Of a DNA stretch of 64,000 bases, positions 38,167 to 49,201 are shown piece after piece. How positions within the stretch are numbered: position 1 is the first letter of the stretch; each line of letters starts with the position of its first letter. The DNA is from Pseudomonadales bacterium. GTDB lineage: Bacteria > Pseudomonadota > Gammaproteobacteria > Pseudomonadales > Oceanobacteraceae. Both the position numbers and the translations under genes were made by a program. The notes under the pieces are model-generated. The model had not been told where the DNA came from. It saw nothing but the letters and a program-made list of their open reading frames with translations, and ran no database searches. Where the stretch lies: positions 1,456,322 to 1,520,321 of the forward strand of contig OZ239982.1 in assembly GCA_965197005.1 (NCBI GenBank). The letters run 5' to 3'.

Positions 38167-38306
38167 ATATTATCCTATTAATTAATGTTTAAAAGAGCAA
38201 AAATCATAGCAAAAAATACACTTTAAATAAAAACAAACAATATACCGCCCAAAATTTACTAATAATAAAACAGCAAAAGGCAGAAAATTTAAACCTGAAC
38301 CCTAGT

Positions 38307-38418
38307 CAGGGGACAGAGGACAGAGGACAGAGGACAGAGGACAGAGGACTGAGGACTGAGGACAGAGGACTGAGGACTGAGGACTGAGGACTGAGGACTG
38401 AGGACAGAGGACTGAGGA
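38307..38418 (+). repeat. Heptanucleotide tandem array, 16 units of CWGAGGA (CAGAGGA/CTGAGGA; first unit CAGGGGA)
   Basis: Counted directly: 16 x 7 = 112 nt with no interruption. Confidence 0.95.
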
Positions 38419-38422
38419 CAGA

Positions 38423-38439
38423 ACCATGCTCCGCATGGT
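38423..38439 (+). repeat. Hairpin motif ACCATGC-TCC-GCATGGT, copy 1
   Basis: 7-bp stem with a 3-nt loop. The 28-nt string GAGGACAGAACCATGCTCCGCATGGTGC is identical to the one at 44326..44355. Confidence 0.9.
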
Positions 38440-38525
38440 GCAGGGTAAGTCTTATTTCTTTGGTTTTATATTTACGTTTTCGGCTATTTTGATCGGGCTT
38501 GGTAGTGTTTTGGCGATTACTCTAT

Positions 38526-40127
38526 TTAATCCAAATCAAACGCAGCTTTTATCAAACTTTTTGTATAGTCTGTCTTTGGTTTTTCAAATATCTGTTTGGT
38601 GTTGCCATATTCTATGAGGTTGCCACTTTTCATGACCATCACTTCGTCACTCATGGCTCTAACTACCGCTAAATCATGGCTTATAAACAGGTAGGTTAAT
38701 CCATGCTTTTTTTGTAAATCTCTAAGTAGGTTGACAACTGTTACCTGTATGGATCTATCAAGTGCTGAAGTGGGTTCATCAAGTAAAATAAATTTGGGCT
38801 TTAACACCATGGCTCTTGCTATGGCAATACGTTGCCTTTGTCCACCACTAAATTCATGGGGATAACGATTCCTTAGGTTGGGGTCAATTTCAACCTCTTC
38901 AAGAGCTTGGATTACCCTTGTTTCTCGTTCTATTTTACTAAGGTCTTTTTCATGCACTAGTAAGCCTTCAGCAATGATCTGCCCTATGGTCATACGAGGC
39001 GAAAGTGAACCAAATGGGTCTTGAAAAACAACTTGAAGTTCTCTTCTTAGAGGGCGAAGATGAATAAAATCCATGCCGTTTATTGCTTTGCCAAAAGCAT
39101 GTATCTCTCCTTTTGATTCGATGAGCCTTAATATGGCTTTCCCTAGGGTAGACTTTCCGCTTCCACTTTCACCAACAATGCCTAGCGTTTGTCCTTCCTT
39201 TATTGATAGACTTATTTTGTTAACGGCATGAAGATATTTTATGGTTTTGCCAAAAAAGTTCTTTTTTATAGGAAACTTCACGTCTATATCTTCTACCCGT
39301 AAGATGGTTTTTGCGTGCTCTCCTACAGGTTCTTTTAGTCCTTTTGGTTCAGAATCAAGCAGCATTTTTGTGTAGGGGTGTTTGGGGGATTGAAAGACTT
39401 CTTTTGTGTTTCCTTGCTCAAGTATTTCTCCATTTTTCATCACGCAAACAGCATCTGAAAAATGTTCTACAATGCCTAAATCATGGGTTATAAATAAAAT
39501 CCCCATGCCAAATTTCTTTTGTAAATCCTTTAACAGGACAAGTATTTCTGCTTGAACAGTTACATCTAATGCGGTGGTAGGTTCATCTGCTATTAAAATA
39601 TCAGGTTCATTGGCCAATGCCATAGCTATCATCACCCGTTGTCTTTGTCCTCCACTTATTTCGTAGGGGTAGGCTTTTAGTCTGGAGCGCGGATCGGGAA
39701 GTTGAACGGCATGTAATAATTTTAATACTTTGTTTCTGGCTTCTTTTTTGTTTAACTTTTTATGTAGTAGTAGCACTTCAGAGACTTGTTTCTCAATGGT
39801 TTGTAGGGGGTTTAAGCTGGTCATGGGCTCTTGAAATATGATGGCTATTTTGTTACCACGAATGTTTTGTAAAACTTTTTTCTTGGCATTGACAAGCTCT
39901 ACACCACGATAGTTTATGGAACCATTTGGGTGTGATGCCATGGGATAGGGAAGGAGTTGTAATATCGACATAGAGGCGACACTTTTTCCGCTACCACTTT
40001 CTCCAACTAAGGCAAGCGTTTGGCCTTTTTTCATCTTAAAGCTAATGTTTTTTACGGCATTAACAATGCCTGTATGTAGGTTGAAATCTACACTTAAATC
40101 TTTTACTTCCAAGATAGTTTCATTCAT
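38526..40127 (-). CDS. Peptide/nickel-type ABC transporter, fused double ATPase (YejF/DppDF-like)
   Basis: 533 aa with two Walker A motifs (GESGSGKS twice), two signature motifs (SGGQRQR twice) and two Walker B motifs. Confidence 0.9.
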   Translation of the reverse strand: MNETILEVKDLSVDFNLHTGIVNAVKNISFKMKKGQTLALVGESGSGKSVASMSILQLLPYPMASHPNGSINYRGVELVNAKKKVLQNIRGNKIAIIFQEPMTSLNPLQTIEKQVSEVLLLHKKLNKKEARNKVLKLLHAVQLPDPRSRLKAYPYEISGGQRQRVMIAMALANEPDILIADEPTTALDVTVQAEILVLLKDLQKKFGMGILFITHDLGIVEHFSDAVCVMKNGEILEQGNTKEVFQSPKHPYTKMLLDSEPKGLKEPVGEHAKTILRVEDIDVKFPIKKNFFGKTIKYLHAVNKISLSIKEGQTLGIVGESGSGKSTLGKAILRLIESKGEIHAFGKAINGMDFIHLRPLRRELQVVFQDPFGSLSPRMTIGQIIAEGLLVHEKDLSKIERETRVIQALEEVEIDPNLRNRYPHEFSGGQRQRIAIARAMVLKPKFILLDEPTSALDRSIQVTVVNLLRDLQKKHGLTYLFISHDLAVVRAMSDEVMVMKSGNLIEYGNTKQIFEKPKTDYTKSLIKAAFDLD

Positions 40128-43561: not shown

Positions 43562-44297
43562 ATAACTCTCCTGCTTGTATGTTTTTATTGATTATTTGTT
43601 TTTTTATATTTATTTAGTTCTATTTTATTCGTTAGGTTTGATTTTTACGTGCTATTTTCACGAACTAAATTTCTTGCAACATAACACTAAAAAAGCGTGG
43701 TAGCAAAATTATCAAACATTAAAAGTTTATTTATTTGCCTAGACTGACTTTTTTAGAGCATAGCGATAAAAGATATAATTATTTGCAAAATGTTATAAAA
43801 TATCATTCTTTGGGTAAATTCCTCAGCCTAAAGAATCAGACAAACCGATCTTAGAACGGCCATATAAATTGACGATTCAGTTTTTATATAATTTAAATAA
43901 AATCAAATAGGTTAGCCTTTGAATTTATTTATACAGGATATGGGCATGGTTGAGTTGAATATCAATTTTTTTTGCTATGCAATAAGATGTCAATTATAAA
44001 TAATGAGGTAATTATAGGAAAATGAATCATATAAAAGCGTCATTTTTCACAAACGATGATAAAGATGGTCTTTTACCCTTCTTGAGTAAGAGATTACTAA
44101 GCGATGAAGTAGATGAATAAAGCAAAATAAAAAGCGCTCAAAATTCTGTGTCAGCTTAGAATTTAATTATAGAAACCGTTCAAAGTTCAGTCTTCTGAGC
44201 CCGTAAGCCTGTCATTATGGTATAGACTTATTCAATATTTTTTTATGCTGTTTCAATGTACTAGTACATTGGTGTTTTTTTTGTGGAATAATGTGGC

Positions 44298-44660
44298 TGC
44301 TGGACTGAGGACTGAGGACTGAGGACAGAGGACAGAACCATGCTCCGCATGGTGCTGGGCAGGGGGCAGGGGTCAGAGGTCAGGGGGCAGGGGTCAGAGG
44401 TCAGGGTTCAGGGTTCAGGGTTCAGGGTTCAGGGTTCAGGGTTCAGGGTTCAGGGTTCAGGGTTCAGGTTTCAGTCCTCAGTCCTCAGTCCTCAGTCCTC
44501 AGTCCTCAGTCCTCAGTCCTCAGTCCTCAGTCCTCAGTCCTCAGTCCTCAGTCCTCAGTCCTCAGTCCTCAGTCCTCAGTCCTCAGTCCTCAGTCCTCAG
44601 TCCTCAGTCCTCAGTCCTCAGTCCTCAGTCCTCAGTCCTCAGTCCTCAGTCCTCAGTCCT
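44298..44660 (+). repeat. Composite heptanucleotide repeat block
   Basis: Read in order: CTGAGGA x3 and CAGAGGA x1 (44305..44332). Hairpin ACCATGC-TCC-GCATGGT (44337..44353). (CAGGGGG CAGGGGT CAGAGGT) x2 (44360..44401). CAGGGTT x9 (44402..44464). CAGGTTT x1. CAGTCCT x27 (44472..44660), which is the inverse complement of the CTGAGGA units. Confidence 0.95.
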
Positions 44661-44663
44661 CTG

Positions 44664-44700
44664 AAAAAGCAAAAAAAACCCAGTACGATGACTGGGTTTT
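44664..44700 (-). terminator. Intrinsic terminator of the rRNA operon
   Basis: 10-bp stem AAAACCCAGT / ACTGGGTTTT with loop ACGATG, followed on the minus strand by TTTTGCTTTTT. Lies 12 nt downstream of 5S. Confidence 0.8.
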
Positions 44701-44711
44701 TGGGTTTAAGA

Positions 44712-44828
44712 GCTTGACGATGACCTACTCTCACATGGGGAAACCCCACACTACCATCGGCGATACAACGTTTCACTTCTGAGTTCGGCATGGGGTCAGG
44801 TGGTTCCGTTGCTCTATGGTCGTCAAGC
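44712..44828 (-). rRNA. rrf: 5S rRNA
   Basis: The reverse complement aligns with E. coli 5S as I remember it (CCCCATGCCGAACTCAGAAGTGAAACG...GATGGTAGTGTGGGG). The terminal helix GCTTGACGA/TCGTCAAGC closes it. Confidence 0.9.
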
Positions 44829-45234
44829 AAACTGGTTTTTATACTTTGTTTTAATGCTCTTTTTGCTGCTTTTTAAAAATGAACAGAGTATAAAAATAAG
44901 GTTGGACACATGGGTTTATATTGAGATTCTCTTTGTTTTTTCTGCTTTCTGCTTTCTGCTTAAAAACCTTAGCGAACCGTCGATTGCGGTTGTTGTTTGT
45001 CTATAACTTTGTTTTCTTCAAAGTATTGATTGTTGACTTGTTTTACCCTTTTTCATCTTTCATCTTTCTTTATTGATGATAGCTGAAGTTTGGGGTTATA
45101 TGATCAAGCCTCACGGGCAATTAGTATCAGTTAGCTCAACGCCTCACAACGCTTACACACCTGACCTATCAACCAGTTAGTCTTACTGGGCCCTACAGGA
45201 CTCTCTAGGAGTCAGTGAGATCTCATCTTGAAGG

Positions 45235-46129: not shown

Positions 46130-46728
46130 CCCAGCACCTAAATTTTCTGTTTCTCTAATGCCTTGCTTTCAATTAAATTTGTCTGTTATCCAACCTCTTT
46201 ATTCCTCTTCTGGAATTTAGGGGCTGGGCAAGCCCAGACTTTCTTTAATTATTTGCATCATCTTAATGCCTTGCTTTCAATTAAATTTGTCTGTTATCCA
46301 ACCTCTTTATTCCTCTTCTGGAATTTAGGGGCTGGGCAAGCCCAGACTTTCTTTAATTATTTGCATCATCTTAATGCCTTGCTTTCAATTAAATTTGTCT
46401 GTTATCCAACCTCTTTATTCCTCTTCTGGAATTTAGGGGCTGGGCAAGCCCAGACTTTCTTTAATTATTTGCATTAGTACTTGTTTTGTTTTCTTTGTTG
46501 TTTGAGTCTTTGTTATTTAGTTCTTTTAGCTAAATTCCATTTCTGAAATGCAGTTTCTAAATAAACTCTTAGCTTTTAGCTTTTAATAAAAAGATAAACT
46601 CTATCTAATTATAAGTGCTAAATGGCTTGCCCAGCCCCTAAATTCCATTTCTGAAATGCAGTTTCTGAACTTCCACTTAATTCAAACAAAAAGAAAATAC
46701 TTACAAGTAAAAAAATTTAGGTGCTGGG
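46130..46728 (-). other. 599-nt non-coding insertion at the apex of 23S helix 68 (IVS or expansion segment)
   Basis: E. coli reads GGGGTTA-GC-GCAA-GC-GAAGCTCTTGATCG here. This gene reads GGGGTTA-[599 nt]-GAAGCTCTTGATCG. The block is closed by a perfect 16-bp stem, 46130..46145 (CCCAGCACCTAAATTT) with 46713..46728 (AAATTTAGGTGCTGGG). Confidence 0.8.
46156..46475. repeat. Three perfect tandem copies of a 108-bp unit inside the helix-68 insertion
   Basis: TAATGCC anchors at 46156, 46264 and 46372. Copies are identical by eye, and the third is truncated at about 46475. Each copy contains CTGGG-CAAG-CCCAG, which is a CUUG tetraloop hairpin in rRNA sense. Confidence 0.9.
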
Positions 46729-47410: not shown

Positions 47411-47878
47411 TTCAGAAGACTGAAGACAGTAGACTGATGACTGATTGCTTAACCCCAACTCTTGTGCAAGCCCGTTAACATTTTTGCTATGTCTTGGTAT
47501 GTCTTACGCCAAGACTGCCATGTCTCGTTGCTAATGTAGCCAAGATCCAAACTGTATCTTGTCCACACTCGCATCTCATCGGCTGAACCTATCGCCATAC
47601 TTAAGTAGCGTTTAAATTCAGCTTTGGATATGCGTTGCTTGCCATAGCCTTCCGCTATGTTTGCACAAATGCCTTTACTGGCTCTACGCATTTGATCTGC
47701 TAACCCATTGAGTTGTTCGTTCTTAGGAAATCTTAAGCTTGTTGTATGTACTTCTAAAGAAATCGCATACGCTTTCTTAAACACTTCTAAGTCTTCAAAA
47801 CTTTTTATTGAGTTAACTGGATTTTGCGTCCGTTGGTGTTTCATCTGTCTTCTGTCCTCTGTCTTCAGTCCTCTGAAC
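47411..47878 (-). other. 468-nt intervening sequence in 23S helix 45, carrying an ORF
   Basis: It replaces the E. coli helix-45 cap (CAACAACGCATAAGCGTCGCTG) between CTCTACCG and CCGTAGCTTCGGTG. The flanks TTCAGAAGACTGAAGACAG... and ...CTGTCTTCAGTCCTCTGAA form a 19-bp stem, in which the single mismatch becomes a G.U pair in rRNA sense. Confidence 0.85.
47449..47844 (-). CDS. Four-helix-bundle protein of the 23S rRNA intervening-sequence protein family (the misnamed S23 ribosomal protein family)
   Basis: 131 aa, same sense as the rRNA and lying entirely inside the helix-45 IVS. The sequence (FEDLEVFKKAYAISLEVH...ANIAEGYGKQ...KAEFKRYLSMAIGSADEMRVW) fits the family as I remember it. Confidence 0.85.
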   Translation of the reverse strand: MKHQRTQNPVNSIKSFEDLEVFKKAYAISLEVHTTSLRFPKNEQLNGLADQMRRASKGICANIAEGYGKQRISKAEFKRYLSMAIGSADEMRVWTRYSLDLGYISNETWQSWRKTYQDIAKMLTGLHKSWG

Positions 47879-48488
47879 CCGTAGCTTCGGTGTACAGTTT
47901 TAGCCCCGTTATATCTTCCGCGCAGGCCGACTCGACTAGTGAGCTATTACGCTTTCTTTAAAGGATGGCTGCTTCTAAGCCAACCTCCTAGCTGTCTGTG
48001 CCTTCCCACATCGTTTCCCACTTAACTGTAACTTTGGGACCTTAGCTGACGGTCTGGGTTGTTTCCCTTTCCACGACGGACGTTAGCACCCGCCGTGTGT
48101 CTCCCGGATAGTACTCTGTGGTATTCGGAGTTTGCAAAGGGTTGGTAAGTCGGGATGACCCCCTAGCCTTAACAGTGCTCTACCCCCACAGGTATTCGTC
48201 CGAGGCGCTACCTAAATAGCTTTCGAGGAGAACCAGCTATCTCCGGGCTTGATTAGCCTTTCACTCCTATCCACAAGTCATCCCCTCATTTTTCAACATA
48301 AGTGGGTTCGGTCCTCCAGTTGATGTTACTCAACCTTCAACCTGCTCATGGATAGATCGCCCGGTTTCGGGTCTAATGCTAGCGACTATTCGCGCAGTTA
48401 ACACTCGGTTTCCCTACGGCTCCGCTATTCGCTTAACCTTGCCACTAACATTAAGTCGCTGACCCATTATACAAAAGGTACGCCATCA

Positions 48489-48554
48489 CCCCGCCACCAA
48501 ATGTCTTTTGTCATTTGTGTCGTTATCAAATGCAACAAACATTTGGTGGCGGGG
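48489..48554 (-). other. Enlarged 23S helix 25 (66-nt hairpin against about 14 nt in E. coli)
   Basis: Perfect 16-bp stem CCCCGCCACCAAATGT / ACATTTGGTGGCGGGG plus an inner stem CATTTG/CAAATG. It replaces E. coli ACGCCTAAGCGTGC between GGTACGC..TCAC and CTGCTTGTACGTACACGG. Confidence 0.8.
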
Positions 48555-49201
48555 CTCTGACTGCTTGTACGTACACGGTTTCAGGGTCTATTTCACTCCC
48601 CTCACAGGGGTTCTTTTCGCCTTTCCCTCACGGTACTGGTTCACTATCGGTCATCTGGGAGTATTTAGCCTTGGAGGATGGTCCCCCCATATTCAGTCAG
48701 GATTTCTCGTGTCCCGACCTACTCGTCTTCATTGTATTATTCCTTTCGTGTACAAGACTTTCACTTTCTGCGGTTGCCCTTTCCAGAACATTCCACTAAA
48801 AATAATACAACTTAAGGGCTGCTCCCCGTTCGCTCGCCGCTACTTGGGGAATCTCGATTGATTTCTTTTCCTCGGGGTACTTAGATGTTTCAGTTCTCCC
48901 GGTTCGCCTCAATAACCTATGTATTCAGTTATTGATAACAGCTTATGCTGTTGGGTTTCCCCATTCAGATATCTTCGGATCAAAGGTTGTTTGCCACCTC
49001 CCCGAAACTTTTCGCAGGCTACCACGTCTTTCATCGCCTCCAGATGCCAAGGCATCCACCGTGCACGCTTAATTGCTTGATCATATAACCCTAAACTTCC
49101 TCATCTACCACAAGTAAAGTAGATGAAAATTAACAGCTCAGGATAACCAAACAATCGCCGGTTCGCTTGAGAATCTCATTTTATATTCTCATGTGTCCAA
49201 A

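Follow-up and report, generated by a model that had tools for sequence, protein, structure and literature searches.

A heptamer-repeat block behind an rrn terminator and the genome-wide family of predicted hairpin modules that includes it

The window, that is the whole analysed stretch of 64,000 nucleotides, carries one of the three rrn operons of a genome that is assembled as a single 2.71-Mb contig with 40% G+C. The operon is read from the minus strand and its intrinsic terminator is identical in all three operons. Beyond the 5S gene and this terminator, and thus not inside any 16S or 23S helix, a block of tandem 7-nt units extends over positions 44298-44660 (Table 1). Three period-7 arrays are recognised here by Tandem Repeats Finder, at 44302-44333, 44367-44474 and 44471-44661 (scores 57, 153 and 382), the last of which has a purity of 100%, and the block is far beyond chance expectation. 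The unit counts, the position of the block and the inverted relation of its ends had been given in an earlier note made from the letters, and the exact parse agrees with all of them, the last array being the reverse complement of the first. The same note described the block as consisting entirely of heptamers of the pattern C-W-G-R-G-K-N, which has to be corrected on two points: the CAGTCCT units fall outside this pattern, and a 27-nt half-palindrome at 44333-44359 interrupts the arrays, since a conserved palindrome core had been counted as heptamers. In this half-palindrome a heptamer stands in place of the left outer arm. The G-rich sub-arrays that come next contain 13 G3+ tracts, 4 nt apart, i.e., a motif of the G-quadruplex type, and the transition CAGGGTT-CAGGTTT-CAGTCCT of the block is seen again at 1780 kb, 1783 kb and 977 kb of the contig.

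At its other end the block adjoins a 117-bp companion module (M117), in which the palindrome CAATGTACTAGTACATTG (44254-44271) is followed by T8 (44275-44282), an arrangement that resembles a plus-strand terminator, though a weak one (-6.7 kcal/mol). M117 was also considered as a structured RNA and rejected (z = -0.9 and -0.4; no Rfam match). A coding role of the block was discarded as well, the 125-aa ORF found there having a sub-threshold, low-complexity match only and overlapping the 5S gene. The palindrome provides an ATG, from which ORF finders derive false proteins of the MLRMV... type at family members (38426-38617 and 44340-44717 in the window).

Table 1. Features of the rrn operon, the heptamer block and related elements, in window coordinates.
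Feature	Position	Strand	Basis or remark
16S rRNA gene	50846-49308	-	rrn operon
23S rRNA gene	49082-45100	-	rrn operon
Helix-45 IVS of 23S rRNA	47411..47878	-	sequence and Rfam alignment
131-aa PF05635 ORF in helix-45 IVS	47844..47449	-	Pfam, 102.6 bits
5S rRNA gene	44827-44712	-	rrn operon
rrn intrinsic terminator, 11-bp stem, tail T8-GC-T5	44664..44701 (hairpin 44701-44674)	-	terminator scan
CTG, then A-run (terminator T-tail on minus strand)	A-run 44664-44678	+	exact parse
Purine-rich arm, in rRNA sense AGAGGA then (CTGAGGA)x26	44472..44663	-	expanded 5' arm of hairpin module; (CAGTCCT)x27 on plus strand
CAGTCCT x27	44472-44660	+	exact parse
CAGGTTT x1	44465-44471	+	exact parse
CAGGGTT x9	44402-44464	+	exact parse
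(CAGGGGG CAGGGGT CAGAGGT) x2	44360-44401	+	exact parse
G-rich sub-arrays (the three preceding rows)	44360..44471	+	in window copy only
Non-heptamer stretch CAGA-ACCATGCTCCGCATGGT-GCTGGG, 27 nt	44333-44359	+	exact parse
Half-palindrome core (PAL), CAGA-ACCATGC-TCC-GCATGGT-GCTGGG	44333..44359	+	one of 72 genomic copies
CAGAGGA x1	44326-44332	+	exact parse
CTGAGGA x3	44305-44325	+	exact parse
Short arm, CTGAGGA x3 and CAGAGGA	44305..44332	+	pyrimidine-rich 3' arm in rRNA sense; parse and fold
117-bp companion module (M117)	44184..44300	-	5 to 6 genomic copies (BLAST), every one adjoining heptamer arrays
Second family member, CAGAGGA/CTGAGGA x16.6, ending in the same half-palindrome as the block	38300..38445	+	between two minus-strand genes

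The expectation that such heptamers constitute a genome-wide repeat family, and not an oddity of a single locus, was borne out by a census, in which 96 arrays of CWG units, 3 to 87 units in size, were counted. Among the tandem periods of the genome, 7 ranks first (8.5 kb), and nearly all arrays are composed of CWGNNNN units, the commonest being CAGAGGA, CAGAGGT, CTGAGGA and CTGTCCT; G3 tracts are missing from CAGAGGA and CTGAGGA, which make up most of the family units. The family occupies ~10.4 kb (10,448 bp) in ~45 intergenic regions, and 578 bp of it lie within retained genes. It is built of four kinds of parts: the palindrome core, the heptamer arrays, a conserved turn-around junction (CAGAGGTCAAGGACTGAAAC), at which purine-rich arrays switch to CTGANNC arrays, and M117. 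The palindrome, CCCAGC-C-CCATGC-TCY-GCATGG-T-GCTGGG, was found at 72 genomic places, ~48 of them full and ~21 half, the half copies having the left outer arm swapped for a heptamer as in the block. A C.T mismatch and a 3-nt loop are conserved across the 72 places; no covariation that would indicate selection on the structure is seen among these copies, which are nearly identical and in this respect uninformative. Paralogous composite loci at 209 kb, 2024 kb and 2331 kb differ by whole heptamers. As to the gene context, established with crude longest-ORF gene calls, 28 family regions lie between tandem, 13 between convergent and 4 between divergent genes (background 1195, 253 and 301, respectively), so that convergent gaps are enriched 2.5-fold (p = 0.009). 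A terminator-like site lies within 40 nt of 10 of the 60 blocks, about twice the 4.6 +/- 1.9 obtained with random intergenic placement. No orientation rule with respect to the upstream gene or its transcription was seen, the family occurring in either orientation, and the G-rich strand lies on the leading strand in 64 of the 96 arrays. Irregular units of ~19 to 26 nt (ggaattaatgtgaCTGTCCTgtttag) are also clustered beside heptamer arrays, at 12.9-13.2 kb, 2473.7 kb and 2684.8-2685.5 kb of the contig (designated G000:C1 in coordinates below).

The three rrn operons allow paralogous members of the family to be compared directly. In the rRNA sense every rrn terminator is followed, from the same base, by (GAGGACT)n-GAGG-TTTTACCCAGCCCCATGC-GGA-GCATGG-TTCTGTCC-(TCAGTCC)m, and the three tails are homologous. 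The tail near 169 kb has ~3 units upstream of the palindrome and 3 downstream, the tail near 1985 kb has 2 and 8, respectively, and the one in the window has 27 units in the 5' arm and ~16 further units (CTGAAAC, CTGAACC x9, CTGACCT and others) between this arm and the palindrome. The expansion and the extra sub-arrays are confined to the window copy. Array lengths at paralogous sites differ in 7-nt and 21-nt steps. Since outside the arrays the operons share 99.4 to 99.8% identity, the arrays are their fast-changing part, and the three copies form an internal record of the rate of array change. The homology between the operons stops at the module or just past it. Another heptamer that differs between the rrn copies, (TTTCTGC), is found inside the transcript, in the 23S-5S spacer (44939-44961 in the window), with 3.3 units here and 7.3 in the other two operons. 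The 23S gene of the window also contains a perfect tandem repeat of three 108-bp units (46156-46474), and BLAST offsets suggest a difference of about one such unit in the 23S genes of the other two operons.

All three rrn tails are predicted to fold as a heptamer-armed hairpin with the inner stem of the palindrome at its tip and with stems of 17 to 31 bp. The window copy has a z-score of -9.2, the two short copies have z-scores of -5.6 and -5.1, and no shuffle equalled them. In the predicted fold of the window copy the short arm is paired with the units that come first after the terminator, and the 6-bp inner hairpin of PAL survives in the centroid fold of the block. The earlier proposal that the block would form a long hairpin if transcribed is therefore well founded in silico, the inverted arms strongly favouring such a fold. 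The extent of pairing is smaller than the arrays would imply, because the first array has 3 to 4 units and the last 27, so that ~31 nt at most can pair. The cruciform that had been proposed as an alternative is unlikely for the window copy, with ~290 nt separating the short left arm from the pairing end of the array; it would be more plausible in the short copies at the two paralogous sites.

Parts of the same family are found inside the 23S rRNA genes. In the window, the helix at model positions 1206-1226 of the Rfam alignment has its loop replaced by the helix-45 intervening sequence (IVS). The stem arms of this IVS (CAGAGGA CTGAAGA CAGAGGA CAGAAGA CAGATGA) are units of the dispersed family. 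The ORF that it contains belongs to PF05635 ('23S rRNA intervening-sequence protein'), of which the genome has exactly three, one per 23S gene. In the other two operons a helix-25 IVS (G000:C1:164878-165093 and 1989603-1989817), where the insertion is ~135 nt longer than in the window, has the stem CCCAGCACC...GGTGCTGGG and the internal sequence TTTACCCAGCACC, which match the outer arm of the palindrome and its flank; helix 25 of the window (48476-48556) has a hairpin extension of ~66 nt, CCCCGCCACCAAATG...CATTTGGTGGCGGGG. Both building blocks of the rrn-tail module thus serve as IVS stems in one genome, and a single repeat family accounts for the stems of two 23S IVS, the tail of every rrn terminator and 45 gene gaps.

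The association with PF05635 reaches beyond this genome. In all 12 relatives inspected (L133-L144) a PF05635 gene is located between metK and ahcY, within inverted repeats whose arms are composed of 7-nt units, e.g., GCGTCGG x8 to 13. In the family sample GWCNGNN arrays were present in 12 of 16 genomes with PF05635 and in 12 of 69 without it (p = 2e-5), and in the order sample of 250 genomes dispersed arrays were present in 15 of 26 with and 17 of 224 without the gene (odds ratio 16.6, p = 4e-9), figures in which related genomes are not independent and the pattern covers one unit class only. For a control mobile gene, Y1_Tnp, the odds ratio was 2.9. The genomes of the order sample that have both PF05635 and arrays fall in 11 families, with the arrays mostly far from the gene; arrays in genomes that lack PF05635 exist too, e.g., in the single-contig genome G099. 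The nearest solved structure to the PF05635 protein is 2GSC of Xanthomonas campestris, and PF05635 resembles Avd, which binds nucleic acids as a cofactor in diversity-generating retroelements (PMC10053308).

Searches for the palindrome in 41 relatives and in the metagenome, viral, plasmid and phage collections gave no match, and in species-representative genomes the matches listed were single and of chance level. Windows of five CWGRGKN units number 642 in this genome (G000), at most 24 in 8 of 85 genomes of the family and at most 8 in 8 of 250 genomes of the order. With the broader pattern, GWCNGNN x5, comparable loads appear in two relatives (970 windows in G003, 345 in G011), and the view of this genome as a unique outlier, which holds for the CWGRGKN units, was given up. 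Heptamer arrays of related units are sporadic.

A relationship to the STRR repeats of cyanobacteria and to the TAACTGA-type repeats of large sulfur bacteria had also been suggested. The cyanobacterial STRR units, which we take to be CCCCAGT, TTGGTCA and CAACAGT, amount in this genome to 2 to 3 tiny arrays: CCCCAGT is in tandem (at least 2 units) at 3 places, and TTGGTCA and CAACAGT never are. TAACTGA is present in 403 single copies and no tandem pairs, and tandem GGGAATC is missing from the genome. The near absence of STRR units, together with TAACTGA never being tandem, indicates that the family has its own unit set, and the relationship therefore holds for the kind of repeat and not for the units (PMC4679880, PMC4692102). 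Like STRR, the TAACTGA repeats of Beggiatoaceae and the GGGNATC repeats of Xanthomonas and Nostoc, the family consists of tandem 7-nt units, mostly intergenic (PMC4679880, PMC4692102), found at many loci and differing by 7-nt steps between paralogous sites; related units with a CTGA/TCAG core are mixed in one array, and arrays are scarcer between divergent genes. Unlike them, it has arrays of up to 87 units, not ~4 (3 to 87 units here against the four-unit preference of GGGNATC), and is bound to a specific palindrome and a junction motif. TAACTGA repeats are direct repeats that lie mostly just upstream of start codons, in Beggiatoaceae and cyanobacteria, whereas the arrays described here do not precede start codons and the block follows a terminator. 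Nothing points to an affinity with large sulfur bacteria: the relatives of this genome form one family in an order of which at least 56 families were sampled. Bacterial heptamer repeats were surveyed by Mrazek (2007), to judge from the citation of that work in PMC4679880.

Closer parallels come from Coxiella burnetii. Its helix-45 IVS contains AGAAGA and tandem GACAGAT heptamers ahead of the ORF, their number varies between strains, and the stem is cut by RNase III (Warrier et al., 2016, PMC4990558). A long terminal inverted-repeat stem with tandem heptamers of the GACAGAN type in variable number, associated with an S23p/PF05635 ORF, is thus common to both organisms, and in the genome studied here a homologous IVS with a PF05635 gene is present in each 23S gene and is built from the units of the block. 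The block itself differs from the C. burnetii IVS in lying outside the rRNA, past the terminator, in having a 17-nt palindrome instead of the ORF, and in arms of up to 27 units. The 7-bp VNTR typing loci of C. burnetii, for which the primers read CAGAGGACAGAGGACAGT, have 4 to 27 units (PMC1488860), a range which indicates that such arrays are hypervariable. By their published description, loci ms24 and ms33 agree in unit type, as read from these primers, with the arrays of the block (PMC1488860, PMC11510843); unlike the block, they are not reported to have a palindrome core or to be associated with rrn operons. With respect to other repeat classes, the ~29-nt palindrome with an internal mismatch, in 72 extragenic copies that are often clustered and lie at gene 3' ends, is reminiscent of REP/BIME elements, from which the family differs in lacking an intact RAYT (Y1 transposase) gene and in having its copies inside microsatellite arrays. 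Compared to rRNA IVS, the block is not inside helix 9, 25 or 45, the true IVS of the window being the one at helix 45, and compared to MITEs it has inverted arms, with no target-site duplication or transposase recognised. A RAYT-driven REP model was rejected on the ground that a 68-aa Y1_Tnp fragment, matching positions 80-121 of PF01797, is all that the genome contains; this lone remnant of an IS200/RAYT-type transposase lies at G000:C1:1677722-1677850. Array synthesis by a telomerase-like or other reverse transcriptase was set aside as well, since the genome gave no RVT_1 match.

Most economically, the block is read as a member of a class that is already known, the bacterial heptamer repeats, here organised around a lineage-specific palindrome. 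It is considered reasonably probable that the block represents the hyper-expanded form of a non-coding module able to fold as a hairpin, in which inverted CWGNNNN arms surround a short palindrome and which follows each rrn terminator as a slippage-prone, selfish or neutral element of IVS-like or REP-like character. The arrays would lengthen and shorten through replication slippage or unequal exchange, and the element, probably selfish or neutral DNA, would be kept where insertions are tolerated, i.e., at gene 3' ends, in convergent gaps and at rRNA expansion sites. If transcribed, its long perfect stem would be a substrate of RNase III, as the IVS stems of the same units would. No role in rrn expression would be required to explain it. 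The block, flanked on one side by the rrn terminator and on the other by the terminator-like palindrome of M117 that faces it, may also occupy a rarely transcribed and hence tolerant stretch, an idea tempered by the weakness of the M117 'terminator'. Several observations weigh against this reading: no transposase or target-site duplication accounts for the dispersal, the near-identical palindrome copies give no covariation, the module stands at the same base behind three rrn terminators, which could mean function and not just co-duplication, and family blocks are in excess near terminator-like sites.

An alternative is that the module serves the rrn operons as a functional RNA element, one that catches read-through as an RNase III entry site, a protector of 3' ends or a back-up stop, with the expansions as tolerated noise. 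Its identical start after all three terminators, the strong folds of the three tails and the modest surplus of family blocks beside terminator-like sites are all in its favour, as is, by analogy with C. burnetii (PMC4990558), the presumed processing of stems of the same units in the 23S precursor. It is nevertheless improbable, because the strong terminator upstream (11-bp stem, T8) should let little RNA reach the module, which has no U-tail of its own, and because the family stands in either orientation to the upstream gene across the genome and the arms range from 2 to 27 units among just three rrn copies. Still less credit is given to an action of the block as DNA, in which G-quadruplexes formed by the (CAGGGTT)n strand, or else a cruciform, would pose a barrier to replication or transcription, or would make a recombination hot spot at the edge of the rrn repeat. 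The 13 closely spaced G3+ tracts would suit this idea, as would the end of operon homology at or just after the module and the bias of the G-rich strand to the leading strand, and G-quadruplex formation in vitro is known from the related GGGNATC heptamers (PMC4692102); yet the G-rich sub-arrays occur in one of the three rrn copies, CAGAGGA and CTGAGGA, which make up most units, have no G3 tract, and the distance between the pairing arms makes extrusion of a cruciform unlikely. That the lengths or order of the arrays are an artefact of assembling a repeat-rich region is very improbable. Short-read (Logan) contigs of ERR12833624, 100% identical to the flanks, do end at 44229 and, in the second family member of the window, within the array at ~38339 to 38412, and none crosses an array; against this, the genome is in one 2.71-Mb contig, ordered variant units and conserved junctions are repeated at independent loci, and the exact boundaries are common to three paralogous sites. 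Arrays of this kind break short-read assemblies and breed false ORFs (MLRMV...), and they would suit strain typing.

A further suggestion is put forward tentatively: the dispersed heptamer-armed hairpins, the block included, might be gene-less derivatives of the PF05635 cassette or substrates for it, and PF05635 might act in trans in a mobile hairpin system that would be widespread and so far undescribed. In its favour are the units shared by the cassette arms and the dispersed arrays of this genome, the heptamer-armed metK-ahcY loci of the 12 relatives, and the excess of arrays in PF05635-bearing genomes, which is far smaller for the Y1_Tnp control. Heptamer repeats have long been known in bacteria, with no accepted origin or role, and such a system, if real, could account for them. 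The genome provides a compact test bed in this respect, and the association with PF05635 turns a vague idea into a testable question, namely whether these hairpins are targets of the PF05635 protein or of RNase III.

Short tandem arrays of other kinds are present in the genome as well. A (CAGCAAT)x19 array directly follows an ATG at G000:C1:1783004-1783144, and 8-mer arrays (CAGCCCAA, CAGCTCAA, CAGCTATC) of 8 to 23 units lie in the conserved 5' regions of paralogous genes. Further loci of this group of arrays are at ~1054.1, 1324.6 and 2223.4 kb and at 209.7, 828.0, 1597.7, 2009.3 and 2024.4 kb. Both kinds of arrays look like slippage-driven phase-variation switches.
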